Numbered from the stretch's first letter, positions 155-62,100 are shown. The stretch: DNA of 64,000 bases from a bacterium (GCA_021810605.1 JAJZIL010000001.1:604-64603), one strand, 5' to 3'. Notes: generated by a model not told the origin, from the letters alone. A program made the numbers and translations.

Positions 155-496
155 TTATATATTTGAGAGATTGAATCTTAATGTAGTACCATTTATGAAG
201 TTTGTTGAAAAACTATTATTTGCAACAAAACTTCCAATAAATACAATTACTATATATGCCATAACTATAACTACTAAACCTAGTACTGCATACATTAATC
301 CCTGTTGTGCTTTCTGTTTTAATTCAGGATTGACACCACTAAATAAATACCTAATACCATTCCAGATTATCACTATAAATAAGACTAAAGTAATAAAATC
401 ATAAAGAAGACCTATTACTATTCCGAAATATCCTACTAATTGATATAAATGTGGAGTAGATGCTTGATTAATAGGAATATTATTATTTGCTGACAT
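155..496 (-). CDS. small membrane protein with VirB2/TrbC-like two-helix pilin module (paralog 1 of 5)
   Basis: 113 aa. Hydrophobic helix, then a short loop (SGVNPELKQKAQQ), then a second hydrophobic helix. The motif [IV]SGI[RK]x(5-8)EKxxKAQxx[LI]xxAIxGLxxI is shared with the four ORFs downstream. Confidence 0.45.
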   Translation of the reverse strand: MSANNNIPINQASTPHLYQLVGYFGIVIGLLYDFITLVLFIVIIWNGIRYLFSGVNPELKQKAQQGLMYAVLGLVVIVMAYIVIVFIGSFVANNSFSTNFINGTTLRFNLSNI

Positions 497-498
497 AA

Positions 499-1011
499 TT
501 ATTTAATACTACAATTAGAGCTTATTGGATTACTTGTAAATAGGGATCCTCCTACACCTAAAACACTTGTAACTATCTCAACTATCAAAAATGATCCAGC
601 TACAATGACAATCCCAAGTATTGCATGAATTATTGCAGTTTGAGCAGATGCGATTTTTTCTTTATCTCCTCCTGCAGTAATAATTTTAATTCCAGATAAG
701 ATTAGCATTACAAAAAAGGCTAATCCAGCTACAGAAAATAAGCCTACTATTATAGTACTTATAGTAGTTGATATTGAAGAACAACTACTAGGGATATTAC
801 TTGATGGTAAAAAATTACAATTACCTCCGCTAGGATTTCCTCCTAAAATAGTACAAGAACTTCCTCCTACAGATGTAGTAGATATAGTTTGTCTTGAAGA
901 TTGTATTCCTGTCTCAACTTTAGAGACTGCCATTGCATAATTAGGAGTTTTTAGGATAAAAACAAAAGTGAATAGGATCGCAAATACAAATAAAAAATTT
1001 TTTATCTTCAT
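499..1011 (-). CDS. secreted/membrane VirB2/TrbC-like pilin-family protein (paralog 2)
   Basis: 170 aa. N-terminal signal-like segment and a Cys/Ser/Thr-rich variable region. C-terminal TM - AGGDKEKIASAQTAI - TM module. Confidence 0.5.
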   Translation of the reverse strand: MKIKNFLFVFAILFTFVFILKTPNYAMAVSKVETGIQSSRQTISTTSVGGSSCTILGGNPSGGNCNFLPSSNIPSSCSSISTTISTIIVGLFSVAGLAFFVMLILSGIKIITAGGDKEKIASAQTAIIHAILGIVIVAGSFLIVEIVTSVLGVGGSLFTSNPISSNCSIK

Positions 1012-1766
1012 AAAGTGTGTATTAAGACTAAACTTATAATATAAGCAAGTATTATTATACTAGCACCGATAATAGCTCCAGTCAATACAGATTTAGCTTT
1101 TTCTACTTTATTACTGTCTCCACTAGAAGTCATAAATAAAAATCCTGCATATGATATTAACCCTAAAACTATAACCCCAATAAGGCCATATAATATTGGT
1201 AAAACTATTCCTAGTAATGTAGAAATTATATTTGAAGTTCCAACTGTCCCTCCTAAAGGATCTGAAATACTCCCAGTAGGAAGAGAAGTTACTCTGTGCT
1301 TACCTGAGCCTGAGGAGGAAGTTGGTAATATAGGATTATAAACCTGATAATAATGGCATCCAATGTGACCTATACAACTAGAAACAAGACCACTTGGTTC
1401 AGTATAAACAATTACAGTTCCTGCAGGTAAATTATAAAAATTAGAATTTAAATTTGGCTGAGTACAATTAATCAAGTTACCTAAAACTCCCTGAGGAGAA
1501 ATAGTTATCCCAATAAAACCTCCTGAATCAGATATAGCTTCTACATAATGAATTTCTCCATTACTTGAAGTACCATGATCTATTCCATATTGTAATTCTC
1601 CACACGAAGTTATTGAAGTTAAATTAGTTGAAGAAGTTGTAATTACACTACTAGCATGAATTAAATTATTCCCTCCTGAAAAAATACTAACTACATAAAA
1701 AAAGATTGATATAATTAGTAAAACTGAGAATAACCTACTTATTAAAAATTTTAATAAACTATTCAT
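1008..1766 (-). CDS. VirB2/TrbC-like pilin-family protein with variable Cys-rich ectodomain (paralog 3)
   Basis: 252 aa. The MNSLLK leader is shared with 2159-3004. C-terminal TM - SSGDSNKVEKAKSVL - TM module. 4-nt overlap with the upstream gene. Confidence 0.5.
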   Translation of the reverse strand: MNSLLKFLISRLFSVLLIISIFFYVVSIFSGGNNLIHASSVITTSSTNLTSITSCGELQYGIDHGTSSNGEIHYVEAISDSGGFIGITISPQGVLGNLINCTQPNLNSNFYNLPAGTVIVYTEPSGLVSSCIGHIGCHYYQVYNPILPTSSSGSGKHRVTSLPTGSISDPLGGTVGTSNIISTLLGIVLPILYGLIGVIVLGLISYAGFLFMTSSGDSNKVEKAKSVLTGAIIGASIIILAYIISLVLIHTL

Positions 1767-1818
1767 AAATATTTATTTTATAAACTAATATATAACATAT
1801 GTTACTTACCTTATTCAT

Positions 1819-2157
1819 TTATAATAATCCATTAAATATAGGTACTGCACTTGATAATACCTTAATTATAATTCCTGCAAAAACTATTAATGTTAGACCT
1901 ATTATTGCATATATAAGAGTACTTTGAGCTTTTGAAACTTTCTCTCTACTCCCATTTGAAGTAATAATTCTTATTCCTGATACTATAATAAGAACAAAGA
2001 ATACTATACCTACTATAAAATAAAATAAATTAAATATTGAACTAAATATATTAGTTAAACTTAAAGCATTACCAAAAGGACTTGTAATAGTAACTGAACA
2101 CTGAGAATTACTACATTGAGCAAAGACAGGGTTTATTATGTTTATATATTTTTCCAT
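1819..2157 (-). CDS. minimal VirB2/TrbC-like pilin-family protein (paralog 4)
   Basis: 112 aa. TM - TSNGSREKVSKAQSTL - TM module, with two N-terminal Cys. Confidence 0.5.
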   Translation of the reverse strand: MEKYINIINPVFAQCSNSQCSVTITSPFGNALSLTNIFSSIFNLFYFIVGIVFFVLIIVSGIRIITSNGSREKVSKAQSTLIYAIIGLTLIVFAGIIIKVLSSAVPIFNGLL

Positions 2158-2158
2158 A

Positions 2159-3004
2159 CTATAAATATTGTAAAAATTGAATATTAAATATTGCTCCTAT
2201 TGATGTAAGTATTATAAATGCAAATATTATAACAAGTAACCCAATTATTGATTTTGTCATAAGACTCTTTCCTCGCCCTAATTTTTCTGGATCTCCTCCA
2301 GATACCATAATTAAGTATCCAGCAAATATTATAACCGCAAATGCAAGCATAAAAGCTAAAGTAAGTACTATTTTATACACAAAATTTATTACCCCATATA
2401 AAGAAGTATCTATACATCCAAAATCAGTATATATATACTGATATGTACTTCCTCCCTTACTTACACAAGATATACATTGTGAATTTCCCCCACATGCAGA
2501 ACTAACTGAATATTTAGATGTTGAATTTGATGTTGAAGTACTAGTAGGTTTATAAAAATAGATAATAAAATTATTAGTTCCTTGAATTAAGGTGGCAAGA
2601 GATTCTACAGATGAAATATTTCCAACATTAATTTGATTAACAGTAGTATTATTTACCTTACAGTAAGAATTTACAACATTAGCAGAACTATTTATTTTTA
2701 GATACACAGTAACAATAAGATTTCCTACTTTACTACTATTAGAAATTTCAGTAACAGGGATAATAAAATTTGATCCTATTCCTGAACTAGAAATTGAGGA
2801 CACATTTAAATTCGAACTATTTGAATTATTAATAAGAGCTGAAGAAACCTGAGCAAAAGATTGACAAGTAACATAATTCTTAGTACTTGCATAAATTTTA
2901 CTAATATTATTATCTATTAATATATTAAACCCAGATAAAAATAATCCTACAGTTAATAAAATTAATAAAAATCTATACCCTATTTTTTTTAATAAACTAT
3001 TCAT
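2159..3004 (-). CDS. VirB2/TrbC-like pilin-family protein with large S/T/N-rich ectodomain (paralog 5)
   Basis: 281 aa. MNSLLK leader plus TM. C-terminal TM - SGGDPEKLGRGKSLM - TM module. Confidence 0.5.
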   Translation of the reverse strand: MNSLLKKIGYRFLLILLTVGLFLSGFNILIDNNISKIYASTKNYVTCQSFAQVSSALINNSNSSNLNVSSISSSGIGSNFIIPVTEISNSSKVGNLIVTVYLKINSSANVVNSYCKVNNTTVNQINVGNISSVESLATLIQGTNNFIIYFYKPTSTSTSNSTSKYSVSSACGGNSQCISCVSKGGSTYQYIYTDFGCIDTSLYGVINFVYKIVLTLAFMLAFAVIIFAGYLIMVSGGDPEKLGRGKSLMTKSIIGLLVIIFAFIILTSIGAIFNIQFLQYL

Positions 3005-3051
3005 AAATAATTGTATAAACGATACATTATACTATAAAATATAACATATGT

Positions 3052-12548: not shown

Positions 12549-13277
12549 TCATAAATATTTATCCAAATTATTATAAAAATTAGATTTATCATAAAAATTA
12601 AAGAAATTTAATTCTTCTTTATATTTTTTTAATTCTATATAAGATTCTACCTTATTTTTAATAAATTCAGATCTTTGTATATCAGGAAATATAAATATAA
12701 CTTTAGGAAAAACATCAAAATACTTTTTATATTCCATAGATAAATAAAAATTTGAATATACATCTATCTTATTAAGTATTTTAAAAAATGTCTCTGTTGA
12801 TCTATCTAGCTCTAAATAAATATTATTCTTGTTAAATATACAAAACCCATCTGGAATAATCTTATATGCTTTACCTTCATATTTAAAATATTTTGCAGTA
12901 TTAATATCAGAAACCCAATCAGAAAAAATATAATTATTTCTTAATGCATATTGTTTAAGATTTATAAAAAAAATATTAGATTCTAATATATGAGGAAGAA
13001 AAAATTGTTTATATGTGTCTTGTATATAGCTAAAAGTTTTCAGATTATTCCCTATAATTTTATTACCTTTTTTAGTAGAAAAATAATATCTAAAACCTCT
13101 ACGATTAGACACCCTCAAAAAAGAAATCAATTTATACTCATAAAGGAGATTTATTCTTTTTCTTAATGTACTAAGTTTTATGTCAAAAAATAAATTAATA
13201 TCTTTTACAGATAGACATGGATGTTGATCAATAAAGCTAAGAATCTGAATGTCTTTTTCTTTAATTTCCGTGTACAT
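12549..13277 (-). CDS. winged-helix protein, replication-relaxation-family-like with possible PD-(D/E)xK-like core
   Basis: 242 aa. N-terminal MarR-like wHTH (ILSFIDQHPCLSVKDINLFFDIKLSTLRKRINLLYEYKLI). Downstream IIPDGFCIF ... YLELDRSTE resembles the PDG...E.DrgTE motif of replication-relaxation proteins. Confidence 0.4.
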   Translation of the reverse strand: MYTEIKEKDIQILSFIDQHPCLSVKDINLFFDIKLSTLRKRINLLYEYKLISFLRVSNRRGFRYYFSTKKGNKIIGNNLKTFSYIQDTYKQFFLPHILESNIFFINLKQYALRNNYIFSDWVSDINTAKYFKYEGKAYKIIPDGFCIFNKNNIYLELDRSTETFFKILNKIDVYSNFYLSMEYKKYFDVFPKVIFIFPDIQRSEFIKNKVESYIELKKYKEELNFFNFYDKSNFYNNLDKYL

Positions 13278-13279
13278 AT

Positions 13280-13726
13280 CTAAAACAGATAATTCCGAAT
13301 CCTCTCTAATTCACCTTTTAAATATATGACTCCCAAACGAGTAAAGTCTCTTTTAATATTTTGTTGATTAGAAGATAAATCATTAAGAACAAATATTTTC
13401 TTCCCTAAAATATATGCAAAGCCTATATCCATATACATATTATAACCAATATATCCTAAGATATTATTCCAATCATAATTTAATATTAGAATTGAATCTG
13501 AACTTTGTATAAAATTATACTCTATATCAAAAGAGTCCTTTCTAAGCTTTAACAATGAAGTATTTTTAGCATCAGAATAACGACTTTTACTTGATTCTAA
13601 AAGATTATACTCTTCAAAAAATGGTAAATTGCAATCATATCCATACTCTTGTAATAATAACATAACCTTTTTAGATTCAATATAATTTTCTATTTTAGAA
13701 CAAATTAATATTTTTTTTCTATCCAT
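13280..13726 (-). CDS. nucleoside 2-deoxyribosyltransferase-like (NDT/SLOG-fold) small protein
   Basis: 148 aa. YMDIGFAYILGKKIFVL matches the NDT active-site region (FElGyAyAlGKPv) with Asp in place of the catalytic Glu. 8-nt overlap with the ATPase upstream. Confidence 0.4.
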   Translation of the reverse strand: MDRKKILICSKIENYIESKKVMLLLQEYGYDCNLPFFEEYNLLESSKSRYSDAKNTSLLKLRKDSFDIEYNFIQSSDSILILNYDWNNILGYIGYNMYMDIGFAYILGKKIFVLNDLSSNQQNIKRDFTRLGVIYLKGELERIRNYLF

Positions 13727-15719
13727 AAGTATTTAATAATCTAGAATAAATTGTATATACAGCATTATTATCATTTTTAGAGTAAATAAGATATCTATTT
13801 ATATTTGAAGGAATTTCAAAGTTTATAATATTAGAAAGATATTTCCTGGAACTCTCCCCAGTATCCATTATATAAAAATTTGAACAATTCTCTATGATAC
13901 TAGATAAATATTTTTTATCTATCTGATCTATATATTGATTCGCAACAAATACTGATAAATTGTACTTACGAGATTCTGAAAAGATAAATAGGACATTCTC
14001 GGATATAAAATTTTGAAATTCATCAATATACAAATATACATGATTCTTACTTTTTTTCTGAATAATAGTATTTCTTATCTGATTTATTATTAAAGATCCT
14101 AAAAATTTAGAATTCTCTTCCCCTACTACATTTTTTGGTATAGAAAATATTATACTTTTACCTTTATCAACAATAGAATTTAAATCTAAATTCTTATTTT
14201 CTCCAGATACAAACTTAGAAATAAACTTATCTGATTTGAGTCTACCTATCTTATTTATTATTGGAGAAATTCTATCCATCCTTGACCTATTATCCCACTT
14301 AGAAAAAATACTATCAAAGTAATCTAGTGTATCTTTATCTTTTAGAGTTAAAAGAACCTTTAATCTAAAGTGTTCATCTGTCAAAAATTCTTCTAAATCT
14401 AAAATATTATACTTATTTTCAGAAAATATTAAAGCTGAAAGACTTCTTCTTAAAATATCATCACTCTGAGGACCCCAAAACTCAGGATAAAGATCTTTAA
14501 ATATAGAAACAATATTATCAATTAAAAGATATTTATTCATATTTGGATCTAGATTTAAAGGATTAATAGAATATTTAATATCAGAAAAATCTACCAATAC
14601 ACAATTTTTTCTATCTTTTAAAGAGAGTTCTGATACTATCAAATCAGATAAATTATGGGGATCTATAACTATAGTAGATTTACAATTTTTAATATTCTGT
14701 ACAATTATATTTTTCATAAAAAGACTCTTCCCTGATCCAGTTTTTCCTATAAGATAACTATGTGATTTTAAGTATATATCCTTTATTCTAACCTTTTTCC
14801 CATTATTAAATCCTATAAATACACCTTTATTTTTATCCAATACTCTAGAGGGTATATTTAACTCTAAACTGTGCTTGACTAGATTTAAAGAATTATTACT
14901 ACTGACAATAGGTCTGAATATATGAGATAAATTTTTATTATAAAATAATATAGATTTAGCCTTATTATTAGATAATAATAGTGATACTCTATTTAGAATC
15001 TTCTTATCATTAGATTCAACTTTTAGAATAACTAGAGATAAATCCTTGAATCTATATGGATTTCTTAAAATAAAGCTAAAAGATACGCTTTTATTGTCTT
15101 TCAATATATTTAATATATCTTCATAGTAGTTATAAGAAGAATCTAATAACAAATATTTCTTATATAATTTTATCTCTCTTTTCTTAATAGTTGAGATAAT
15201 AATATCTGGGTAATTTAAATGTACAACATCTTTTATATGGTCTATATTTGCTTTACTAATTTGAACCGAATTATATACTTCTCCCCTTACATATTCATAA
15301 GAAATATTTAAAGGTAGTCCTAAAAAAATATCCTCTAGACTCTTATAATGGGGTGTTCTCGTGGAAGATAATTTTAAATTTACTTTTTTAACTATAAATA
15401 AAGATTTTATGAAGAAAAATAGATAATTTAATAGTATCAAAATAGACAACAAATATAGTTCCCAATATATATATTTATATGAATAAGCTAAAAAAATTAA
15501 TACTGGAATAAATGTTGCAAAAAATGATCTACTTACACTCTGAGAATAAGATGAAATTAAATTTTTTATTTTTGATATTAAAGTTCCTTCTGAATATAAA
15601 ATATGTATAATTATTAAAAGAAAAATAATAAATATTGGAATATAACTTTGAGGAAATAAAAAAATATATACAAAAAGTAATATTATTAGAAATTGGTTTA
15701 GATAAAAATTCTTTTTCAT
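13719..15719 (-). CDS. membrane-anchored FtsK/HerA-superfamily ATPase, TraG/VirD4-like type IV coupling protein
   Basis: 666 aa. Three to four N-terminal TM helices. Walker A LIGKTGSGKSLF followed by IVIDPHNLSD. Walker B VYLYIDEFQNF. ANQYIDQI resembles the QSxxQL motif of T4CPs. Confidence 0.6.
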   Translation of the reverse strand: MKKNFYLNQFLIILLFVYIFLFPQSYIPIFIIFLLIIIHILYSEGTLISKIKNLISSYSQSVSRSFFATFIPVLIFLAYSYKYIYWELYLLSILILLNYLFFFIKSLFIVKKVNLKLSSTRTPHYKSLEDIFLGLPLNISYEYVRGEVYNSVQISKANIDHIKDVVHLNYPDIIISTIKKREIKLYKKYLLLDSSYNYYEDILNILKDNKSVSFSFILRNPYRFKDLSLVILKVESNDKKILNRVSLLLSNNKAKSILFYNKNLSHIFRPIVSSNNSLNLVKHSLELNIPSRVLDKNKGVFIGFNNGKKVRIKDIYLKSHSYLIGKTGSGKSLFMKNIIVQNIKNCKSTIVIDPHNLSDLIVSELSLKDRKNCVLVDFSDIKYSINPLNLDPNMNKYLLIDNIVSIFKDLYPEFWGPQSDDILRRSLSALIFSENKYNILDLEEFLTDEHFRLKVLLTLKDKDTLDYFDSIFSKWDNRSRMDRISPIINKIGRLKSDKFISKFVSGENKNLDLNSIVDKGKSIIFSIPKNVVGEENSKFLGSLIINQIRNTIIQKKSKNHVYLYIDEFQNFISENVLFIFSESRKYNLSVFVANQYIDQIDKKYLSSIIENCSNFYIMDTGESSRKYLSNIINFEIPSNINRYLIYSKNDNNAVYTIYSRLLNTYG

Positions 15720-27285: not shown

Positions 27286-29832
27286 TTATATATTCCATGA
27301 TATAAACCATTTTATTAAATTCTTCTTATTAAAAGTTAGAGAGTTATCTTCTTTTAATATTTTTTCTGCTAAATTATTTAAAATTTCCTTATCAAAAATT
27401 TCATTATTTTTTAAATTATTTTCTAAATAATTATCCTTCTTTAAAAATTCTATTAGTTTAATTAAACTTTTTTTATCTATAACAAATTTATGTATATATT
27501 TTTTTATATAAATTGAGTTATTTTCTTTCTCTTTTATATCTATAGTAGTAGAATTACCTAACCATAAATATAATGCATAAAAGAAATCTTTAGAATTGTT
27601 ATTTTTAAATGCATTATATTTAGTCTTATCAATAAATGTATTTACTATTTTATTTATTTCTATTCTCATTTCTGGTTTATATAAAAATTGACCACCATTA
27701 TATAAATTAAGGTTATTATATAAAGAAACCATAAAGTAAAAATTATCCTTATTTATAATAGAATAAATATTTTTAAATATATTTATAATTTCATTTTCAC
27801 TAAACATATTTAAAAGATTCTTAATAAAAAATATATATATATTATTATCTTTAGCACTCTCCTGTAATTTCAAAATATTATTACAAATCATTTTGATTAG
27901 ATTTACAGATCCTTCCTTAGTTAACCCCCATTCTGGTATCGCCAACTTATCCATAAAAAGACTTCTATCTTGAAATTTTAGAAAAATATTAAAAATATCT
28001 TTTTCATCACCATTATTTATTAATTCTATATTATATCTAATTTCTCTATTATGTATATCTTTTTTACTTATCTTCATAGTGAAATATCTGTAAAGACTAT
28101 CTTCACTACAGATTCTAGAATTAATACTATCTTTATCTGTATTCTCACTATTAAAAGGAATCAAACCTATATAAATATTAGAATATTCTTTATTTATTAA
28201 AGCTCTATTTTTATCTGCTAAATCGTATATATTCGGGAATAAAAGACAAATTATAGAGAATACATATTCCTTATATTTAATATCAATACTTTCTAATAAA
28301 TGATTTAAATGATCTAATGTTGTTCTCTCAATAAGAGACTTATCTATACCAATAACAGAATAAAGACCTTTTTTATCAATATTTATATAAATATTAGAAT
28401 TCAAATATATATCATCATAAATAGTAAGAAAGAAAGTTTTAAGTATTTCAAGTATAAGGAAATCTGTTAAATAAATATCTTTATTATTAATTCTATTGTC
28501 ATTCTTTTTAGATATTCCAGAAATATCGAAATTCACAAGATTAATATATTTTTTAACTTTCCTCAAATCAGTAAAATAAGATCCAAAATAATTAAAATAT
28601 GCAAAAGAATAATCATCTATTTTCTCATCAAAATATTCATATATTTTTATTAAATTTTTTTCTATATAATCTAATATATATTCAGGAAGAAATTTTGGGA
28701 CAGATTGATCAAATTGAATAAATTTTTCAAGATATAAGGAATCTTTAACTATATCTTGTATTTTTTTATTTACAACATCTTTGTCAAAAGAAAGTATGAA
28801 TAATAATTTTTTAAAATTACTTACAGAGTTTACTAATTTAAAAACATACAGGATATCTTCAGGAGATAATCTATCTATATTATCAATAATAATAATTATC
28901 TTTTGATCTGTTTGTTTAATAATATCACTAATGCTATTTTTTACATTTTGAAAACTTAGATTATTCAATGAAATTTTAATGAAACCAAAAATATTCAATC
29001 CGAGTGAAGATAATGTAGTATATTTAGACAATAATGATTTTAAATTTCTTATAAAATATTTTTCATTAAGAGTAACCTCTATTTCATTATACAGACCATT
29101 TAATATTGCAGTTTTATTCTCATAATTCCATGGATTAAAATCTATAACACTAATATTTTTTTCTTTTTTTTCATTAATTTTCTCTTTTAATAGATTTAGA
29201 ATAGAAGTCTTTCCAGAACCCCATTCTCCATATAAACCGAAAACAAAACTTTCTTCAAATTTAATATTCTTAATTTTATTAAAAATATCCTCAACAAAAT
29301 TTTCTCTTTCAAAAATATCTTTTTTCTTACTCTTAATTGGGTCATCTGATTTAAAGTCAAATAGATTTTCTCTTCTATTTTTATCTTTTTTCTTTTTCCC
29401 CATAATAAGAGGAACCATAAGTCTTATTATAAGTACATATAAAATAATAATATTCTTCTTATATAAAATATATAACAGAATTAATAAACCTCCTCCTAAA
29501 ACATAATCCAACCAATTTATTGGGAAAAAATGTATTATTGATTCCAAATATTTTTTAAAGAAACGCTTAATGCTTATAAAATTATGAATAATAAATAGTA
29601 TGCAACCAAAAATAAAAATTATTATATAAATGTAATATGGGAAAGTAAAAATATATTGATGTATAACTTTACATAACCAATTATAATAAACTTTTCCAAA
29701 CCTATTAGAAATAAATTCAATAATATAAAATAAAAGTACTAAATATATTAAATATACTGTAGAAATATATACGATAAGTTTAATTATATCTTCTTTAAAA
29801 TCCAAATTATTTATAATTCTCCTAATTTTCAT
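27286..29832 (-). CDS. KAP-family P-loop NTPase with N-terminal TM helices
   Basis: 848 aa. FGLYGEWGSGKTSILNLL is the KAP Walker A (GxWGxGKT/S). IIIIIDNIDRLSPEDILYVFKLV is the KAP Walker B/hhhhDDlDR motif. Four TM helices precede the P-loop. Confidence 0.75.
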   Translation of the reverse strand: MKIRRIINNLDFKEDIIKLIVYISTVYLIYLVLLFYIIEFISNRFGKVYYNWLCKVIHQYIFTFPYYIYIIIFIFGCILFIIHNFISIKRFFKKYLESIIHFFPINWLDYVLGGGLLILLYILYKKNIIILYVLIIRLMVPLIMGKKKKDKNRRENLFDFKSDDPIKSKKKDIFERENFVEDIFNKIKNIKFEESFVFGLYGEWGSGKTSILNLLKEKINEKKEKNISVIDFNPWNYENKTAILNGLYNEIEVTLNEKYFIRNLKSLLSKYTTLSSLGLNIFGFIKISLNNLSFQNVKNSISDIIKQTDQKIIIIIDNIDRLSPEDILYVFKLVNSVSNFKKLLFILSFDKDVVNKKIQDIVKDSLYLEKFIQFDQSVPKFLPEYILDYIEKNLIKIYEYFDEKIDDYSFAYFNYFGSYFTDLRKVKKYINLVNFDISGISKKNDNRINNKDIYLTDFLILEILKTFFLTIYDDIYLNSNIYINIDKKGLYSVIGIDKSLIERTTLDHLNHLLESIDIKYKEYVFSIICLLFPNIYDLADKNRALINKEYSNIYIGLIPFNSENTDKDSINSRICSEDSLYRYFTMKISKKDIHNREIRYNIELINNGDEKDIFNIFLKFQDRSLFMDKLAIPEWGLTKEGSVNLIKMICNNILKLQESAKDNNIYIFFIKNLLNMFSENEIINIFKNIYSIINKDNFYFMVSLYNNLNLYNGGQFLYKPEMRIEINKIVNTFIDKTKYNAFKNNNSKDFFYALYLWLGNSTTIDIKEKENNSIYIKKYIHKFVIDKKSLIKLIEFLKKDNYLENNLKNNEIFDKEILNNLAEKILKEDNSLTFNKKNLIKWFISWNI

Positions 29833-54373: not shown

Positions 54374-54784
54374 TCAATAAGTATAAATAATATTTTTACT
54401 TTTGGGATTTATTCCATGGTTTAATAAAAACTTCTTAGCTTCATTTGTTTTACTGTGCACTTGAGATAAGACAGTTTTAGGATCTAGAAAGTTTATACCT
54501 ATGATATGGACATACACTTTATCACCTTTAATATTACCACTTGAATTGCTTCCTGAAACATAATGAATTGAGAAATTTTCACCACTATAATTAAGTGCTC
54601 CTAAGCTAAACTTAGATTTATTTATTACTGGAACTCCTTTTGGTATATTTATATTATTTGATATCCCAGATGAAGGATTTAAATCAAAAGCTCCTTGTAA
54701 TAAAGAAATGATTATTATAATTACTATAATAGATATTAATAAATAAATAATTTTTCTATTTTTTTGTATAAATGTTAAATTCAT
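54374..54784 (-). CDS. small N-terminally anchored protein, paralog of 55551-55949
   Basis: 136 aa. MNLT..., TM, then PKGVPVINKSKF...HYV...GKNIIYTY, alignable to the 132-aa paralog. Confidence 0.45.
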   Translation of the reverse strand: MNLTFIQKNRKIIYLLISIIVIIIIISLLQGAFDLNPSSGISNNINIPKGVPVINKSKFSLGALNYSGENFSIHYVSGSNSSGNIKGDKVYVHIIGINFLDPKTVLSQVHSKTNEAKKFLLNHGINPKSKNIIYTY

Positions 54785-55542
54785 CCGCTTATTATAATCT
54801 GTGGACCTATAAATGTACTTAAAAATTCTTTTAAACTAGATCTTTGAGAACTATTTGATACTCCAGCAGAACCCACTATAGGAGTATATTCCTCCATCAT
54901 ATATGTAAATAGATCAGTAGTTTTACATTCTGAGTTAGTACCACTACCAGCAACTGCATATCCTGTAGATTTCATTTCTTGTTCAAAAGTAGTTTTATAA
55001 CTAATAAAACTTTGAATAACACAACTTAATCCTGATTGAAATGGTTCTGGGCCAGGAGGACAATTAAAATTTTCTCCATTAGAACCAGGAGCACTAAAAG
55101 TACTTTCTTGTCCCCAGATAGCTGCAATAAATCTAGGATCACAATAATAATTTCCTGAAGAACTCTGACATTCAGATATTATCTGATTTATATTACTAAA
55201 ATGAGAAAAACCAAGACTTGATAAATAACTCTCCATTAAATTAAAATCTGAATTATTTAAAGAAATATTTCCAGAAATAGATATTAAAGGTTGAGAAGTT
55301 GTCCAAGGCTCAGGACAATACCCTGTTGATACAGGAATCGGGGATGTAATAGTAGAAGAACTAGATCCACTTAATATTATACCCGAAGGATTATTATATT
55401 CAGAAATTGTATTTGTACACCAAGGTTGTAACTCAACTCCAGTAGCATAAAGATTTTTAGGGTGTAGAATAAAAATAGCTAAAACTATAATAAAAGTAAA
55501 TGTAAAGATATTTTTTATATATTTATAGTCCTTGTTTTCCAT
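54781..55542 (-). CDS. secreted Cys-rich protein, possible lytic-transglycosylase (SLT)-like hydrolase
   Basis: 253 aa. N-terminal TM/signal. FIAAIWGQESTFS resembles the SLT 'aIa.qESgfn' catalytic block. The downstream GLMQ-type motif was not found. Confidence 0.35.
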   Translation of the reverse strand: MENKDYKYIKNIFTFTFIIVLAIFILHPKNLYATGVELQPWCTNTISEYNNPSGIILSGSSSSTITSPIPVSTGYCPEPWTTSQPLISISGNISLNNSDFNLMESYLSSLGFSHFSNINQIISECQSSSGNYYCDPRFIAAIWGQESTFSAPGSNGENFNCPPGPEPFQSGLSCVIQSFISYKTTFEQEMKSTGYAVAGSGTNSECKTTDLFTYMMEEYTPIVGSAGVSNSSQRSSLKEFLSTFIGPQIIISG

Positions 55543-55550
55543 TATTTAAC

Positions 55551-55949
55551 CTAATTATATACATATATAATATTTTTTCCTTTTGGATTTATACCGTATT
55601 TTCTTAAATAATTTTGAGCAAGACTAAGATATTCAGATTCCTGACTTTTTAAAAGAGAATTCTGGTAGAAATTAATATTTTTTATATCTACATAAATTTT
55701 TCCTCCTTTTGAAGGATTCTTTGGAACATTTGGAACATAATGAACATCAAAGTTAAAACTATTATAATCTATAGCACTTAGTTTAAAAAGCTTTATATTT
55801 GCAATAGGAACTCCTTTGGGAACTTTTATAGTTTTTTCATTATTATTCTGAAAAAAAAGACTAAATATAATACTTATTATAATAACAATTAGTATTATAG
55901 GAATAACATAATTCAATTTAAACTTTGCTCTTATTTCTGTTAAATTCAT
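55551..55949 (-). CDS. small N-terminally anchored protein, paralog of 54374-54784
   Basis: 132 aa. MNLTEIRAKF..., TM, then KVPKGVPIANIKLFKL...HYV...GKNIIYVYN. Confidence 0.45.
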   Translation of the reverse strand: MNLTEIRAKFKLNYVIPIILIVIIISIIFSLFFQNNNEKTIKVPKGVPIANIKLFKLSAIDYNSFNFDVHYVPNVPKNPSKGGKIYVDIKNINFYQNSLLKSQESEYLSLAQNYLRKYGINPKGKNIIYVYN

Positions 55950-55983
55950 AATTATATTATAATACTGTTTCCAAATTATATCT

Positions 55984-58263
55984 TTAATTCCAAACTGGCC
56001 AATTAGAAGGAATTGTTCCTGGAGAAATATTTGTTCCCTGAACTTTTCCAGGTGGAGCCCCTAATGAAGCAAGTAGTTCACTATAATTTATACCATATGC
56101 AGTAGAATTTCCAACTGTACCGTTAAATTGACTTGCACCAGCTGCTATATCAGAAATACCATTTGCCCAACCAGTTTCTATTCCATACCCACAATTTATC
56201 ATATTACCTATAACAGTATTTGTTGTAACTGTTTCCCCTACAGTAACAGTAGGATTAATACATTCTGCAACATATGAATATAGACCTGCAGCAGGACCAG
56301 AAGTTAACTGTTCTTCTATAAAAATATTATTAGGACCCCATCCACTCCCATTTGGAGCATTTACATATGTTATTCTCCCTGGACCAAGAGCATATACTGG
56401 GCCTGTACCTGAATAATCAACTCCTTGATCAATTCTCTCTGGAGACAAATTTGATACTGATCTTAAAGGATTCTGATATATTCCTGTTGCAGATACAGAT
56501 GTATTTGTATTTGAACTTGTAAGTATATATTTGACAGGAGTAGATTGTGTACAAGCAAAAGGATTATATGAACCTAAATCAGCTGATACAATTGGATCAT
56601 TTGTAGAAAGAGCTCCTACATAAACAAGGTATAATAGTAATGGATCAGGAAATTGAGATCTATCTGTAATATAATACTCCCCTTCAGGCAAAGGAGAACT
56701 TACACCTGAGTTAGAATTAGTATTTGTAGTATTATTTGAAAAATAAGGTTGAAATTTATGTATATCTAGATTTTCTTCTATTATAGGAACATTCCCTAGC
56801 CAAGGGAATTCATAACTTACTGATTGGCTATTTGTACCAGAACCAGTTGAAGTAAGACAAGCTACAGAGCTAGCTGGTTGTAAAGAAACATTTAAAGATA
56901 CATTTATTCCAATTCCTGAGAACAGATTACTCTGTATTTCTGTAGCTGTTTGAACTTGTCCAATATTAGGTCCTTGAGTAACTGTATAAGAAGTATTATT
57001 TTGCAAAGCAGAAAGTACTCCAGGATAAAGAGAACTAGTTTGAGGATTTACATAATCTTGCCAGGCATTAATATTTGTATGACCAATTGGCTGCCCATCA
57101 TCTAAAGATGCCTCCATATACCATTCATCTGCTAATATTCTATTTAAACCTTGTAGATATAAATTTGGAGAAATACTGTAAGTATAGCTACTTTGACAAT
57201 TTACAATTTTACAACTCTCATTAACATTAATAGTAAAAGGACTACTCATATAACTACTATTTGTAACAGAATTTGTATCTGTTGTATTTTGTTGGCTAGA
57301 TAAAGGACAATACCCTTGAGGAAGATTAGTTATAGGAGGAGTTGGTCCAGACCCAAAAAAATTTAGAACACTATTATAGATACCTCCTAAAAAATTACTA
57401 ATACCAGAGAGCAGATTTGAATTAGATCTATAATATCCTCCTATAGTGTCACTTGAGGTTTTAGTTGGATTATATGGATCTCCATAAGGATCAATTAATT
57501 TACAAGTAAAATTTCCATTATTATTTGATGTAAAAGTAGCACAATCACTATTTATATTATTCTGATTAACAGTTCCAAATTGATTTAAAGGACTACTACT
57601 GACAACAGAACTGTTTGGAAGTTGCAAAGGATTATATTGATTATCTAAAATATAAGTACTTCCTAAGGTAAATAAATCTGCAGCATTCCCAAGATAAGGA
57701 ACTGGAAAAAATGCTACTCCAGAAGAAGGATTCAATGTAGATACTGAAATATTTTCTGTCATTGAATTAGAGCTAACTGTTGAATTTATCAGATTAACAT
57801 TATAACCTCCTAATCCAAGAACATTTGTATTCCCTAGTTCAGAAAAATTTACATAAGGATCCATACCCAATTTTTCAACCAGATATCCATATGGAGTATA
57901 TGGATTTCCTTGCCCATTATTATATGCTGTACCATTAGAATTTATAGAGTCAAAATAATTTAATAAACCAAAATTCTGTAATTGTACATCAAAAGCTAAA
58001 GATTGAGTCGCTTTAAGAGTTTCTGTACCCTTAGAATGATTTACACTAACAACTTTTAATGGAATATTATAACTGAAACTAGAAGGGTTTGTATTACAAG
58101 ATGTAGCCATATGATTAGGAAAACTAAATGGATTTGATCCTGCACTAGGACAAACTACTAAAGGCTCACTAGAAGCATATACACTTCCTACTCTTAGAAA
58201 AAAGACTATTATTATTGAAATAATATATATATATTTATAATGCAATTTTAATTTCGGGTACAT
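55984..58263 (-). CDS. large secreted S/T/N/G-rich surface protein (adhesin/fibre-like)
   Basis: 759 aa. Signal/TM YIYIISIIIVFFLRVGSVYAS. Low-complexity Asn/Ser/Thr-rich. Confidence 0.5.
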   Translation of the reverse strand: MYPKLKLHYKYIYIISIIIVFFLRVGSVYASSEPLVVCPSAGSNPFSFPNHMATSCNTNPSSFSYNIPLKVVSVNHSKGTETLKATQSLAFDVQLQNFGLLNYFDSINSNGTAYNNGQGNPYTPYGYLVEKLGMDPYVNFSELGNTNVLGLGGYNVNLINSTVSSNSMTENISVSTLNPSSGVAFFPVPYLGNAADLFTLGSTYILDNQYNPLQLPNSSVVSSSPLNQFGTVNQNNINSDCATFTSNNNGNFTCKLIDPYGDPYNPTKTSSDTIGGYYRSNSNLLSGISNFLGGIYNSVLNFFGSGPTPPITNLPQGYCPLSSQQNTTDTNSVTNSSYMSSPFTINVNESCKIVNCQSSYTYSISPNLYLQGLNRILADEWYMEASLDDGQPIGHTNINAWQDYVNPQTSSLYPGVLSALQNNTSYTVTQGPNIGQVQTATEIQSNLFSGIGINVSLNVSLQPASSVACLTSTGSGTNSQSVSYEFPWLGNVPIIEENLDIHKFQPYFSNNTTNTNSNSGVSSPLPEGEYYITDRSQFPDPLLLYLVYVGALSTNDPIVSADLGSYNPFACTQSTPVKYILTSSNTNTSVSATGIYQNPLRSVSNLSPERIDQGVDYSGTGPVYALGPGRITYVNAPNGSGWGPNNIFIEEQLTSGPAAGLYSYVAECINPTVTVGETVTTNTVIGNMINCGYGIETGWANGISDIAAGASQFNGTVGNSTAYGINYSELLASLGAPPGKVQGTNISPGTIPSNWPVWN

Positions 58264-59101
58264 ATATATACATTGGTAATATGGTATTATTTATTATATC
58301 AGCTTTTGCAGAAAGGATATATATTGGAATTATATTACTATTTTTAAAGTCAATAAAGAAACCTTGCCTCTCAGAGATAAAAGATATATTTTGAATTTGA
58401 AGATTTGTATTAATATATGAAAATGTTTTACTTAAATTACTACCTTTAAGTATAAAATTAGAACTTATAGCTAATCTTTTAGTTAAATTAAAAGGGTATA
58501 TAGAAAAACTTACAAAATTATTACTATCTGTAAAAATAAATTCATCATAAAATTTCATACCGTCTGGTTTATATATATAGCTATTGTTTATTCTTGGATA
58601 ATAATACAGAATTTGATCTAATCCAGAAAATACTAAATTCTTATCAAAATTAATCCCAGAAATCCCAAATGTATTTGAAATAATAGAATTAGAGTAAGAA
58701 TAAATATTTACTTTTTGAGAATCATTTTTAATTGAATAAAAATAGCTATTATTGCTATAAACTAAAGATTGTTCCCCTACATACCATACAGTTTGATTAC
58801 TAGACTCTGTAGTAGGTGGACTACTTATACCAAGATTTGATGCTATCTGATAATCAGTTTTACTAAAATAGAATGAATAATAATTACTTTGAGATGATTC
58901 TAAATTTAGAGAAAATTTCTGATTAATATTTGATACTGTATCATTTGAGAAATTAACTTTTGGAACACTCTTAGATACGGGTATTGTACTTTTTAAAGAA
59001 CTATTAGTTACAACTTTATTAACATTTGTTCTAAAAGCAAAATATAGATATAAAAGAATTATAAATATTATAAATGGCAAAACTAATCTTAGATATTTCA
59101 T
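58235..59101 (-). CDS. secreted hypothetical protein
   Basis: 288 aa. N-terminal TM LRLVLPFIIFIILLYLYFAF. 29-nt overlap with the downstream gene. Confidence 0.45.
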   Translation of the reverse strand: MKYLRLVLPFIIFIILLYLYFAFRTNVNKVVTNSSLKSTIPVSKSVPKVNFSNDTVSNINQKFSLNLESSQSNYYSFYFSKTDYQIASNLGISSPPTTESSNQTVWYVGEQSLVYSNNSYFYSIKNDSQKVNIYSYSNSIISNTFGISGINFDKNLVFSGLDQILYYYPRINNSYIYKPDGMKFYDEFIFTDSNNFVSFSIYPFNLTKRLAISSNFILKGSNLSKTFSYINTNLQIQNISFISERQGFFIDFKNSNIIPIYILSAKADIINNTILPMYIYVPEIKIAL

Positions 59102-59103
59102 AT

Positions 59104-62100
59104 TTATTCTCCTAAATATTCCCCTTTATACAAAGTCTCACCTTTGTACAGATATGGATTTGTTGTATTTATTTTTAATATACCAGAAGAAGTTTTTACA
59201 AAAATAGTATCAGCAGTAATACTTCCTGGATTATTTTCTATATTTATAATTTTACCAGAAGTATTTAGAAAAGATGAGGCAGGAGTTGAATTATGATTTA
59301 CTGTATTTGATGTATTATTATTATTTCCTCCAGAAGTTGTTCCTCCTCCTATCAGTGAAGCCATTAACCCCCAACCCAGAACCATTATAAATATTGTACG
59401 TAGAAAATCATCTATATCAAATTCTGTTTTAAATAAAAGAGCTAGTATTCCTATTAGTATATCGAACCCTAAAGATGCAACAGCTGCAGCTTGTCCGAAC
59501 CAACTTCCTATTGTACTTACTACTTTTTTGAAAAAATCTCCTACATAAAAAAATATACCGTGTCCAAAAACTCCTTCTAAAAAGAAATTAATTCCAATGA
59601 CTCCAATTCCAACAACACCAAGACCTGCGAGGGTAGCAACATATCCTCCAACTCCAAAAATTCCAGCACCAAGAGCTCCGAAAACTCCAGCACCACTAAG
59701 AGCTGCTGCCAAACCTCCTGAAATCCCTACTGCAGAAGCTATACCAAAACCTGCAGTCAAAGCACTTCCTAAAAAGCCTCCTATTCCTCTTTGAAAAAAT
59801 AATCCTTTCCAAAAATCTAAAGTTGCTAACTGAGTATCAAAATATACAAGAAAAGCAGGATCAAATATTTTATCTCCAATAAAATTCATAAATCTTGCAG
59901 CTAATCCTTTAACTCCTTCAACTGCTGGATTTAAAAGACGATAGACCCCCCAAGCAGCCCCCACTCCAGCACCAAATAATATTCCAGGAATAGTACCAAA
60001 GAAATAACTAGCTACTAATCCTGCTACTAAACCTGGAGTAGCTCCACTATCAATAAATTTAGAGGTTTTAATTATAGTATCTTTAGACAGAATATTGCCA
60101 ACCACAGCAGTACTTGGATCCATTTTTGAAAGAATTGTCAAACCTGTTTTTAATCCAATATATCCAGCAGTAATTCCCATTAAAATAAGAGGATTTGTAA
60201 CACCCAAAAATACTGAAATTATAACTCCTCCAAAGACTCCAGAACTGAAGTTTTTAAACAAATCTTCTGTCGTTATATTAAACTTAGGATAAAGATTAAG
60301 ATTTATTGTTGTACTAATCTTTCCTAATGCACCTAATCCTGAATTTTTTAAAGCTATAAGAATAGGTTCTTTTAGCTCAATACCCACAATAGATTTTATA
60401 ATAGATTCTGAATCGAAAAGCCTTGCAAAAGCATCCTGGTCTTTCATCTCCATAAATAACTCTCTAAAAGATAAAGAATTATCAGCTCCTTTGAAAAGAT
60501 CTGGGAATACACTACCTACTGAAATATTTATATTTGTTAAAAATTTATAAAAATCAGAGCCCACAAATGAAACACCTAAATCAAAACCTCTAAATTCTTC
60601 CACACTTCCAAATTTTTCAACAAATTCTGGATATTTAAGATCTAAATTTAAACCATGCTCTGATAAAAATGTTCTTATATCAGTGTTTGAAAGACTATTA
60701 TATAGATCCATCTCTCCTCTAGAATTAAAAAAATCTAGTAATTTTCCTTTTAAAATTTCTGGATCTATAAAATTTTTTGCAAGAGGGTCTTTTAATATAT
60801 CTGATATTTTATAATATGAACTCATTTCTCTAGAAACCAATTTGGTTCCAAACTTAGATCCATCTCGAATATTTTGGAGAGATTTTTCAAATCTAGACAT
60901 TATTTCCTCATCTTGTGACCATCCAGCTAGATCTTTTATATCTTCTCTGTATATATTTTTCATCAAAGAATCAAATCTCTCTGAATTATCTAAATTTTCA
61001 TATATATTTTGGATATTAGAATCAGCTGATAATTTATCTATCAATTCTGGACTAAGATTTCTCCCAAAAGGATCTCTTAGTGACCTTAAGAAATCTTCTA
61101 GATTAGTAGCACTCATATTTATACTCTCTCCATAGAAATTGAAAGCATTAGAAGGATCATATCCTCTCAAAACTTCCTGATGTAACAAAGAAGAATCTTC
61201 TCTTATTGTTTTAAGTTCATCTACTATATATCTAGCATCTGGAATGAATATTTTTGGGTCATGAAAATATTCATAAATTCCTTTATCAGAATAGAATCTG
61301 TCTAACATATCACTTGTATATCCACTTTTATAAAATTCTCTATACAAAGATTCTTTTTCTAGTGCTTTTAGGAAATCTAATCTTTCGGAAGTAAGCCTAA
61401 GATCTCCTTCAAGAAGTGTTCTTTCAGCTAAAGGTTTAGAATCAATTATAAATCTTGATCCTCTTTTTCCTATATAAGTAACTATAGATGAAATTCCACC
61501 TGAAACTACAGCTCCTATAACTGCCCCTACTGGTCCTCCAAAAGCAAAACCTATTAAAGCAGCTCCTCCTGTAAAACCAACACCAATATGAACTACATCA
61601 TATGCAGTTATGCCTGATATATTGTGTAGAACTGTATCCTCAAATAAAGATGATTTAAAGAAATCTGCAACCCCTCCAGAAACCAAACCTGCACCTGCTA
61701 GACTTAAGAATAAAGGATTTCCTGTAAAAAGAGCTAGTCCTATACCTACTAGACTTCCAGCTCCTCCAAACTCAATAAGATATTCTGATTTAAATAAAAA
61801 AGAAGATCCTGAATCTAGTGCTGCAGAATAGCTACCTATAGTCCTACCTACAAAAGATAGATCTACTGCTTTCAAAGCAGAACCTACTCCAAATAATCCT
61901 ACTCCTACAGCCACAAGAGGAAGTCCAGTTACCCCAAAAAGTGCTGCTGCAATAGTACCTACAACTGCAGTTGTTACTCCAAAAGTTCCTGATTTAAAAA
62001 TAATCTCAGGAAGAGAAAGCGCTCTGTCTGTCATTGTTGAAGCTATTCTTTCAATAATATTTGAAACTAATGGATTTTGTACAGAAAAATAATTTGCAAA

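Follow-up and report, generated by a model that had tools for sequence, protein, structure and literature searches.

A seven-gene pilin array

The DNA considered here (the window) is a 64,000-nt stretch of a bacterial assembly (GCA_021810605.1, JAJZIL010000001.1:604-64603), and at its left end lies an array of genes for predicted VirB2-like pilins of a type IV secretion system (T4SS). Between window positions 155 and 3004, on the minus strand, five adjacent open reading frames (ORFs) each end in one common two-helix hairpin module, and all five match the Pfam family PF18895 (T4SS_pilin). A preliminary description of the window had reported five minus-strand genes of 112–281 aa sharing a C-terminal module; the ORFs are as it described, but the array is not five-fold. 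It is cut by the window edge, and the source contig carries seven consecutive PF18895 genes, encoding proteins of 281, 112, 252, 170, 113, 141 and 143 aa, which we name pil1 to pil7 in array order on that contig. Across the array, the window agrees at 100% identity with L001, the longest locus retrieved (part of a 243-kb ENA contig), and exact copies of the 112-aa protein (pil2) occur on 23 public contigs. The genes are given below with their PF18895 matches (gathering cut-off 26.6 bits) and, for the window proteins, the position of the hairpin.

2159..3004, minus strand: pil1, 281 aa, opens the array; PF18895 E = 2.8e-8, 34.2 bits; hairpin at aa 205-272, window 2189-2392
1819..2157, minus strand: pil2, 112 aa, a minimal pilin; PF18895 E = 6.6e-11, 42.6 bits; hairpin at aa 38-104, window 1846-2046
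1008..1766, minus strand: pil3, 252 aa; PF18895 E = 3.1e-5, 24.4 bits (cut-off 26.6); hairpin at aa 183-249, window 1020-1220
499..1011, minus strand: pil4, 170 aa; PF18895 E = 2.1e-8, 34.6 bits; hairpin at aa 84-150, window 562-762
155..496, minus strand: pil5, 113 aa; PF18895 E = 1.8e-7, 31.5 bits; hairpin at aa 24-90, window 227-427
just left of window position 1: pil6, 141 aa; PF18895 E = 5e-10, 39.8 bits
just left of window position 1: pil7, 143 aa, closes the array; PF18895 E = 7e-12, 45.8 bits

Genes pil1 to pil5 are tightly packed or overlapping, with gaps of 1, 52, -4 and 2 nt (the pil4 start overlaps the pil3 stop by 4 nt), and pil6 and pil7 follow longer spacers of 86 and 76 nt, respectively. 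Upstream of the array are GroES/GroEL and then a UvrD/PD-(D/E)XK helicase-nuclease; on its 3' side lie an opposite-strand HSP20, SbcD, SbcC and a SpoIID-like gene. No Rfam match was found in the window. Given the names of the homologues and a GC content of about 25%, the host is most likely a patescibacterium. Members of this group (also known as CPR), for which the PF18895 family is typical, live attached to host cells and represent much of the bacterial diversity that is still uncultivated.

Family identity of the hairpin module

The module spans about 70–90 aa, in which two hydrophobic helices, the second of the form AIIGLxxIxxA, are joined by a loop. The loop follows the pattern G-[IFY]-x(3)-[TSF]-[SAG]-G-[GDNV]-x-[EN]-K-x(2)-[KR]-[AG]-[QK]. 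Among the seven array members, module identity is 26–36%. A hidden Markov model (HMM) of the five window modules, run against the 357 six-frame ORFs of the window, recovered exactly these five (E 6e-35 to 6e-29), the next-best ORF reaching only E = 0.2. The PF18895 match lies above the gathering cut-off in four of the five window proteins and in pil6 and pil7, and just below it in pil3. With a local HMM match of E = 6.5e-29 and the support of its orthologues, pil3 is clearly a predicted member of PF18895 despite its 24.4 bits. When the five-module profile was searched against 1.84 billion cluster representatives, it returned 78,209 matches at E ≤ 1e-3, 11,917 of them at E ≤ 1e-10, and some homologues are named 'pilin [Patescibacteria group bacterium]' by NCBI or assigned to Ca. 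Saccharibacteria.

All 77 close homologues that we compared match PF18895, and 37 of them also match the TrbC/VirB2 family PF04956 at E ≤ 0.01 (best 2.2e-8). The strongest apparently compositional match in the same set was to DUF350, found in 21 of the 77 with a best E of 9e-5, and this value was taken as the noise level for the PF04956 matches. These profile results point to a relation with PF04956 at the superfamily level rather than to membership. Collinear matches to NF045849, a pilin-like family of Mycoplasma integrative and conjugative elements (ICEs), were obtained for all five window proteins (E 4e-7 to 0.017, about 70 of the 80 profile positions); at 14.8–29.6 bits they stay under its 40-bit equivalog cut-off, so that membership in that family is not indicated. 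From these matches, VirB2-like pilin modules may also occur in FATA-type elements of Tenericutes, which are treated in the literature as lacking VirB2 (PMC12102498). The array proteins show no sign of being type IV pilins: none matches PF07963 (prepilin N-terminal methylation), and the G|F/M-T-L-x-E signal is absent from their N-termini. An N_methyl type IV pilin gene is present elsewhere on the contig (L014 6009-6596).

Automatic annotation of these pilins is misleading. The proteins at window 155-496 and 1819-2157, as well as the database homologues P0005, P0180, P0204, P0224 and P0227, carry names such as 'heme O synthase-like polyprenyltransferase', 'flagellar biosynthesis protein FlhB', 'ABC-type polysaccharide transport system permease' and 'YuzA (DUF378)'. 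A large number of family members, among them most of the top 150 matches of the five-module profile search, are single polypeptides with 2–17 tandem T4SS_pilin modules behind a single signal peptide, joined by Gly/Ser/Thr linkers of about 20–30 aa. Examples, all from outside the window, are P0008 (552 aa), P0010 (1775 aa), P0018 (364 aa) and P0063 (241 aa). The junctions contain no internal leaders and no Trp or Gly, and on this ground stop-codon read-through was rejected as the origin of these proteins; they look like genuine fusions. The available portions of the literature on patescibacterial T4SS pilins hold no mention of such multi-module proteins.

Topology and features of the individual proteins

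Each array protein ends in a two-helix membrane hairpin with both termini outside and a short Lys/Arg-bearing loop in the cytoplasm. All seven have 2–4 Lys/Arg residues in the inter-helix loop, none in the 20 residues before helix 1 and 0–1 in the C-terminal tail; by the positive-inside rule, this confinement of charge to the loop makes the loop cytoplasmic and places both termini outside. The number of cysteines supports the extracytoplasmic position of the termini, since it is even in all 34 pilins of six arrays (range 0–10), at conserved positions. An AlphaFold2 (AF2) model of pil2, computed from a 77-sequence alignment, has helices at residues 33-65 and 70-103 with a predicted confidence (pLDDT) of about 90. 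Sec-type leaders with AxA-like sites were recognized in five of the seven proteins (pil1, pil3, pil4, pil6 and pil7), whereas pil2 and pil5 have only short N-tails. Together with the PF18895 matches, these features bear out the pilin topology that the preliminary description had proposed.

The regions preceding the module are where the proteins diverge most. These had been described as completely different, Cys-rich and 0 to about 200 aa long; the divergence is real, the length in the five window proteins is about 20–195 aa, and the cysteine content is modest (0–6 per protein), although always even. In pil1, a Sec-type leader (MNSLLK...) with likely cleavage after IYA, residue 39, is followed by a fast-evolving ectodomain of about 160 aa; the protein has six cysteines, and a conserved motif, C..CxSC..YxYIYTDFGC, lies immediately before the first transmembrane (TM) helix. 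The MNSLLK leader recurs in pil3, which has four cysteines. The short protein pil2 has a degenerate leader (MEKYINIINPVFA|QC) and a CxxxxC pair. In pil4, the leader (AMA|V) precedes three conserved cysteines located before TM1, and a fourth lies in the C-terminal tail, an arrangement kept in all six orthologues; pairing of all four would require the N-region and C-tail to share one side of the membrane, the oxidising one. Neither a leader nor any cysteine is present in pil5, which has instead a conserved 23-aa C-tail after the hairpin. Its orthologues in loci L009-L011 have a full signal peptide, and the leader was therefore lost in this lineage.

Conservation between species and within the population

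A genome scan seeded with an alignment of pil4, pil6 and pil7 identified orthologous arrays in four related metagenome-assembled genomes (MAGs; loci L007-L011) and distant arrays in two Saccharibacteria MAGs (L012 and L013). The related arrays contain 7, 7, 6 and 6 pilin genes, with one more array cut by a contig end, so copy number, which the preliminary description had proposed to compare, varies within a narrow range; the Saccharibacteria loci contain 4–5. In the four other related MAGs, the arrays keep both the order of size classes and the synteny GroEL-helicase-[array]-HSP20-SbcD-SbcC. The matrix of pairwise identities between arrays is diagonal-dominant, meaning that each array position has its own orthologue, and pil6 and pil7 represent a lineage-specific duplication of one last gene. 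Compared with the closest relative (L007; GroEL 87%, helicase 75%, SbcC 69% identical), whole pilins are 52–76% identical over the BLAST-aligned regions. In the most distant locus with intact flanks (L009; GroEL 72%, helicase 47%, SbcC 40%), pilin cores are 44–58% identical and modules 50–58%. Module identity is thus comparable to that of the flanking genes, which indicates that purifying selection on the modules is no weaker than on the neighbours. Judged by these comparisons, the seven pilins are ancient, individually conserved paralogues.

This conservation does not extend to the N-terminal regions of the two large proteins. Among pil1 orthologues, the module is 47–70% identical and the N-region 17–21%; among pil3 orthologues, the values are 55–71% and 7–29%, whereas the orthologues of the minimal pilin pil2 are 52–69% identical. 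At positions 1 and 3, the N-regions differ between species by insertions or deletions of more than 100 aa, and the pil3 ectodomain (about 110–140 aa) is present only in this species and in L008; L007 and L009-L011 lack it. The first gene of the Saccharibacteria arrays encodes a protein of about 700 aa in which Ig-like/fn3 or InlB B-repeat domains are fused to a C-terminal pilin module.

In five other contigs sampled from the population, the array shows either no difference or one of 1–2 nt. The changes are three in total, all nonsynonymous and all in pil1. The label 'hypervariable' given in the preliminary description is hence appropriate for the ectodomains between species and not within the population. 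A 26-nt repeat, 96% identical, connects pil1 and pil3 (window 2987-3012 and 1749-1774; L001 9146-9171 and 10384-10409). It spans positions -8 to +18 of both genes, that is, the ribosome-loading region and the first six codons, and explains the identical MNSLLK leader that had been noticed in two of the proteins. Since the repeat is not shared in orthologues, a recent local conversion event is suggested. No long recombination or inversion repeats and no invertible-promoter-like structures were found at the array, only short AT-rich repeats.

One other gene of the neighbourhood evolves rapidly. The SpoIID-domain protein encoded beside SbcC (L001 16790-18949, outside the window) is about 27% identical to its counterpart in L007, in contrast to GroEL (87%) and the helicase (75%), and is another very fast-evolving secreted protein.

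Expression signals

A strong Shine–Dalgarno sequence (AAGGAGGTGA) occurs in the array only before the last gene, and this holds in four of five species (here, L007, L010 and, with a corrected start, L009). A promoter-like 30-nt element upstream of the last gene is identical in this species and L007, and a hairpin terminator with a 12–14 bp stem and a T-run lies 3' of the last gene in all five species. A related signal opens the array:

3026..3043, minus strand: promoter-like 18-mer TATATTTTATAGTATAAT, about 35 nt upstream of pil1, with the consensus -10 hexamer TATAAT and a sigma-70-like match

An identical copy of this 18-mer lies upstream of pil7 (L001:12543-12560, outside the window), within the 30-nt block. 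The element is not general in the window, where seven matches were found at three or fewer mismatches, compared with 4.9 expected. It may serve as a promoter for pil1 and pil7. The combination of a Shine–Dalgarno sequence, a promoter-like element of its own and a terminator suggests that the pil7 type is the abundant subunit, and pil7 is probably the major pilin.

Other T4SS-type genes in the window

Two genes located about 10 kb from the array and beyond have family matches of the type expected in DNA transfer:

13719..15719, minus strand: T4CP-like (type IV coupling protein) ATPase of the VirB4/VirD4 superfamily, 666 aa, 10 kb from the array
12549..13277, minus strand: Replic_Relax family protein, 242 aa; PF13814 E = 8.8e-16, 59 bits, above cut-off

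The ATPase has N-terminal TM segments and a Walker A motif (GKTGSGKS) at residue 325. It matches Pfam TraG-D_C (E = 4e-7) and DUF87 (E = 5e-6), and its NCBIfam matches, to the TraD coupling protein and the VirB4-like CD1110 (E about 3e-10), are far below the cut-offs; no sequence match was found in the PDB. It is possibly part of the same T4SS as the array and, on these profile matches, would be the only supported T4SS-type part in addition to the pilins. The Replic_Relax protein, two genes downstream, is possibly a relaxase-type partner, and a 148-aa protein without a family match is also encoded there. The three genes (12549-15719) could constitute a DNA-transfer module. Coupling proteins and relaxases are reported to be missing from most patescibacterial T4SS clusters (PMC12102498, PMC10633639).

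The preliminary description had named two further T4SS-like parts in the window, and only one of them stands. The ATPase at 13719 is supported, but the 1521-aa protein at 59104, then considered VirB6-like, has no Pfam or NCBIfam match even at E ≤ 1, and we rejected this assignment; it contains many Gly-rich hydrophobic segments. It belongs to a cluster of eight envelope-protein genes (54374-63669, minus strand, continuing past the right edge to L014 7744-9998) with no usable annotation, encoding proteins of 528, 222, 1521, 288, 759, 132, 253 and 136 aa. The 759-aa protein has a leader and a weak Peptidase_M23 match (E = 1.5e-3); it was also considered as a VirB4 candidate and rejected for lack of a Walker A motif. 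The 132-aa and 136-aa proteins are paralogues, and the 528-aa protein combines an ectodomain with at least five TM segments. No ATPase or Walker A motif was found in the cluster, and Pfam and NCBIfam searches at E ≤ 1 returned nothing but the M23 match. The cluster lies about 5 kb from dnaA-dnaN, and T4SS genes have been reported near dnaA in some Patescibacteria. It may be a divergent T4SS or another envelope machine.

Elsewhere in the window, an 848-aa KAP-family P-loop NTPase (27286-29832, minus strand; Pfam E = 1.9e-36) is encoded where the GC content falls to about 20%, the minimum for the window.

What the array may build

Arrays of this type have been described before. In 2018, arrays of 4–6 small VirB2-related signal-peptide proteins were noted in Saccharibacteria (bioRxiv 10.1101/258137), and Wang et al. 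(2023) reported a predicted pilin series inside the T4SS cluster of Southlakia epibionticum that is essential by transposon sequencing (Tn-seq; PMC10633639). Quinonero-Coronel et al. (2025) applied PF18895, PF04956 and CONJScan profiles to 3,035 genomes and detected VirB2-like pilins in 1,948 VirB4-containing assemblies, with the pilin gene near virB4 in 1,135 and away from it in about 40% of the assemblies having both (PMC12102498). The same study counted 441 arrays of 2–11 pilin genes in 383 Patescibacteria assemblies, with a mean identity of 25% inside each array, and its authors suggested that they provide antigenic or host-range versatility. The locus studied here is a further example of this published phenomenon, and the array is not unusual for this lineage, contrary to the preliminary description. 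What is added is detail on how the subunits differ: the available portions of the literature on these arrays hold no mention of positional orthology, Cys parity or major/minor expression signals. The locus adds no new kind of system.

We consider it fairly probable that the locus is a seven-gene chromosomal operon of VirB2-like PF18895 pilins, whose products would form a surface filament or conduit assembled by a T4SS, with pil7 as the major subunit. A monoderm-type T4SS, resembling the FATA class of mating-pair formation (MPF) systems and encoded elsewhere in the genome, would pull the hairpins out of the membrane and assemble them into a filament or conduit at the site of contact with the host cell. 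While pil7 would supply most of the subunits, pil1 to pil6 would be minor, specialised ones. The N-terminal ectodomains of pil1 and pil3, stabilised by disulfides, would be displayed outside and bind the host, and their fast evolution most likely tracks host-surface specificity. This adhesin reading is suggested by ectodomain identities as low as 7–29%, considered with the Ig-like/fn3/InlB fusions of the Saccharibacteria arrays. We infer polymerisation, dependence on a T4SS in this genome, stoichiometry and adhesin function.

Several observations weigh against this interpretation. None of the five window proteins reaches PF04956: pil5 comes closest (E = 0.087, 13.5 bits; cut-off 27.9) and the other four have no match, so that a comparison with pilin families, as the preliminary description had envisaged, is positive for PF18895 in all five and negative for TrbC/VirB2. 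Searched against the sequences of solved structures, the module profile retrieved no pilin and only a designed protein at E = 0.34. Aligned by hhalign with eight canonical VirB2/TrbC genes from conjugative plasmids, the hairpin profile is collinear over 63 columns at P = 0.0017, but its alignment with its own reverse gives P = 0.0025 (two other reversed controls gave P 0.29 or worse). In the AF2 model of full-length pil1, the hairpin reaches a pLDDT of about 77 and the ectodomain remains below 50, an unreliable region that lends no support here to an adhesin fold. The assignment of major and minor subunits follows from translation and transcription signals only, and the last gene of L008 lacks the strong Shine–Dalgarno sequence. 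We found no VirB4 gene in the 64 kb of the window or within the 10 kb on each side of it, and housekeeping genes surround this array as well as the two examined from Saccharibacteria; given the ~40% of assemblies in which the pilin gene is away from virB4, the absence of a nearby VirB4 does not exclude membership in the family. A 2025 review describes the patescibacterial proteins as the only known pilins of monoderm T4SSs and emphasises that the pilus itself has never been seen (PMC12857230); no filament of the PF18895 family has been observed, and the 'pilus' is inferred in the literature too.

The main rival holds that the hairpin remains in the cytoplasmic membrane, as an anchor or perhaps as part of a ring or stalk in the T4SS channel, and displays the ectodomains on the cell surface without building an extended pilus. 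T4SSs of the Gram-positive type are generally without pili (PMC10633639, PMC12102498), the module can be fused to large adhesin-type domains (Ig-like, fn3, InlB B-repeat), and chains of 2–17 tandem modules resemble multi-pass membrane proteins. The examined arrays are not adjacent to T4SS genes, and the fold search does not separate the module from a generic helical hairpin. A simple anchor, however, has no need of a loop motif (SGGDxEKxxKAQ) kept across tens of thousands of proteins, nor of seven paralogues that are each conserved in their own right, when three or four of them carry hardly any ectodomain; 37 of the 77 homologues match the TrbC/VirB2 profile. On this evidence, we regard an anchor or channel element as rather unlikely.

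A role in antigenic or host-range variation, which the preliminary description had suggested, fits the data less well and is not favoured. According to this explanation, the genes encode interchangeable major pilins that are expressed singly or shuffled by recombination, as proposed for Bartonella and Anaplasma. It could account for multiple divergent tandem paralogues, with the 25% mean identity reported for such arrays (PMC12102498), for ectodomains that evolve fast between species, and for the fact that the sole polymorphisms of the population are three nonsynonymous changes in pil1; the 26-nt repeat of pil1 and pil3 could likewise reflect local gene conversion. Against it, every position keeps its own orthologue in species that have diverged to 72–87% GroEL identity, and gene order and number are stable at 6–7. 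Genes 1–5 are translationally coupled or overlapping, and are therefore expected to be co-expressed rather than used as alternatives. Five independent assemblies show at most 2 nt of difference over the array, some of them none at all, and long direct or inverted repeats and invertible-promoter-like structures were not found there; as the only repeats are short and AT-rich, cassette-type variation was rejected as the principal explanation. We therefore consider variation of this type a poor candidate, behind the anchor or channel element in probability.

Finally, that these are unrelated small membrane proteins, whose likeness to pilins is an artefact of hydrophobic composition with no link to a T4SS, is highly improbable: TM-rich queries do give spurious matches (as with DUF350 in 21 of the 77 homologues, best E = 9e-5), the JGI pipeline names such proteins polyprenyltransferase, FlhB or ABC permease, and the hhalign control is ambiguous (own reverse P = 0.0025 vs 0.0017), but the PF18895 matches are full-length and collinear and exceed the cut-off in four of five window proteins and in pil6 and pil7, a hydrophilic loop motif is conserved and not the TM helices alone, and the family is tied to virB4 by published neighbourhood statistics (PMC12102498) and to T4SS function by Tn-seq essentiality in a T4SS cluster (PMC10633639).

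The favoured reading, an operon for a T4SS-assembled filament or conduit, can be extended to a more specific model, which we offer as tentative. The array might build a heteropolymeric VirB2-type pilus in a monoderm, organised in the manner of a type IV pilus, in which pil7 would form the shaft and the six minor pilins would prime, tip or decorate it. The two adhesin ectodomains would set the host range, and, in place of the head-to-tail cyclisation of T-pilin and TrbC, the position 4 pilin would have its N-region linked to its C-tail by a disulfide. The chains of 2–17 modules would then represent pre-assembled pilus segments.

The function of patescibacterial T4SSs is described as completely unknown (PMC11665869), and in the one species tested, the T4SS, including its pilin series, is essential. 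The pattern found here, with individual conservation, one high-expression member and two variable ectodomains, points to a division of labour rather than to antigenic variation. As a clean comparative case, the locus could help in selecting pilins for tagging, for depletion or for detection in filaments of cultivable Saccharibacteria.

Comparison with known systems

The canonical pilins VirB2, TrbC and TraA (Agrobacterium T-pilin, F-pilin) have in common with the array proteins a long leader, a two-helix core of about 70 aa, a charged loop and outer termini, and there is partial profile overlap with the family studied here (37 of 77 homologues at PF04956 E ≤ 0.01). They come from T4SSs of diderms, whereas the host here is a monoderm. 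Canonical systems use a single, sometimes cyclised, pilin; here, there are multiple paralogues with large N-terminal ectodomains and paired cysteines. The genomic setting also differs: at the eight plasmid VirB2/TrbC loci, VirB3 is present in all eight and a VirB1-type neighbour in seven, while no VirB1, VirB3 or VirB4 is adjacent to this array. The Mycoplasma ICE pilin-like proteins (NF045849; Mbov_0395 and MMCAP2_0565) likewise belong to a wall-less or monoderm lineage with a FATA-type T4SS, but they are single genes on mobile ICEs and not members of a chromosomal array.

Tandem amplification and divergence of VirB2 paralogues in host-associated bacteria is also found in Bartonella (TrwL of the Trw system) and Anaplasma phagocytophilum, which have been cited as an analogy for the patescibacterial arrays (PMC12102498). 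Those are canonical PF04956 pilins of diderm animal pathogens and are thought to vary surface antigens. The paralogues described here are, in contrast, ancient, position-specific and, as their packing suggests, co-transcribed, a pattern nearer to a set of major and minor subunits. The analogy for such a set is given by type IV pili and type II pseudopili, and it is functional only: fold and biogenesis are unrelated, and the N-terminal methylation motif is not found in the array proteins. In those systems, one abundant subunit and several conserved low-abundance paralogues are encoded together, and some of the minor pilins bear extra domains or disulfide loops at the C-terminus.

The closest counterparts are the PF18895 arrays of other Patescibacteria, such as the six-pilin array of Southlakia epibionticum ML1 and the 4–6-gene array of Nanosynbacter lyticus TM7x, which belong to the same Pfam family. 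They share with the present locus the tandem, divergent paralogues, the leader followed by a two-helix hairpin and the context of a small, low-GC genome, here a MAG. Unlike that of Southlakia, this array lies outside a T4SS cluster, between the UvrD/PD-(D/E)XK helicase and HSP20/SbcCD. It also differs from these counterparts in the loss of the leader in two members and the presence, in two others, of ectodomains longer than 100 aa.

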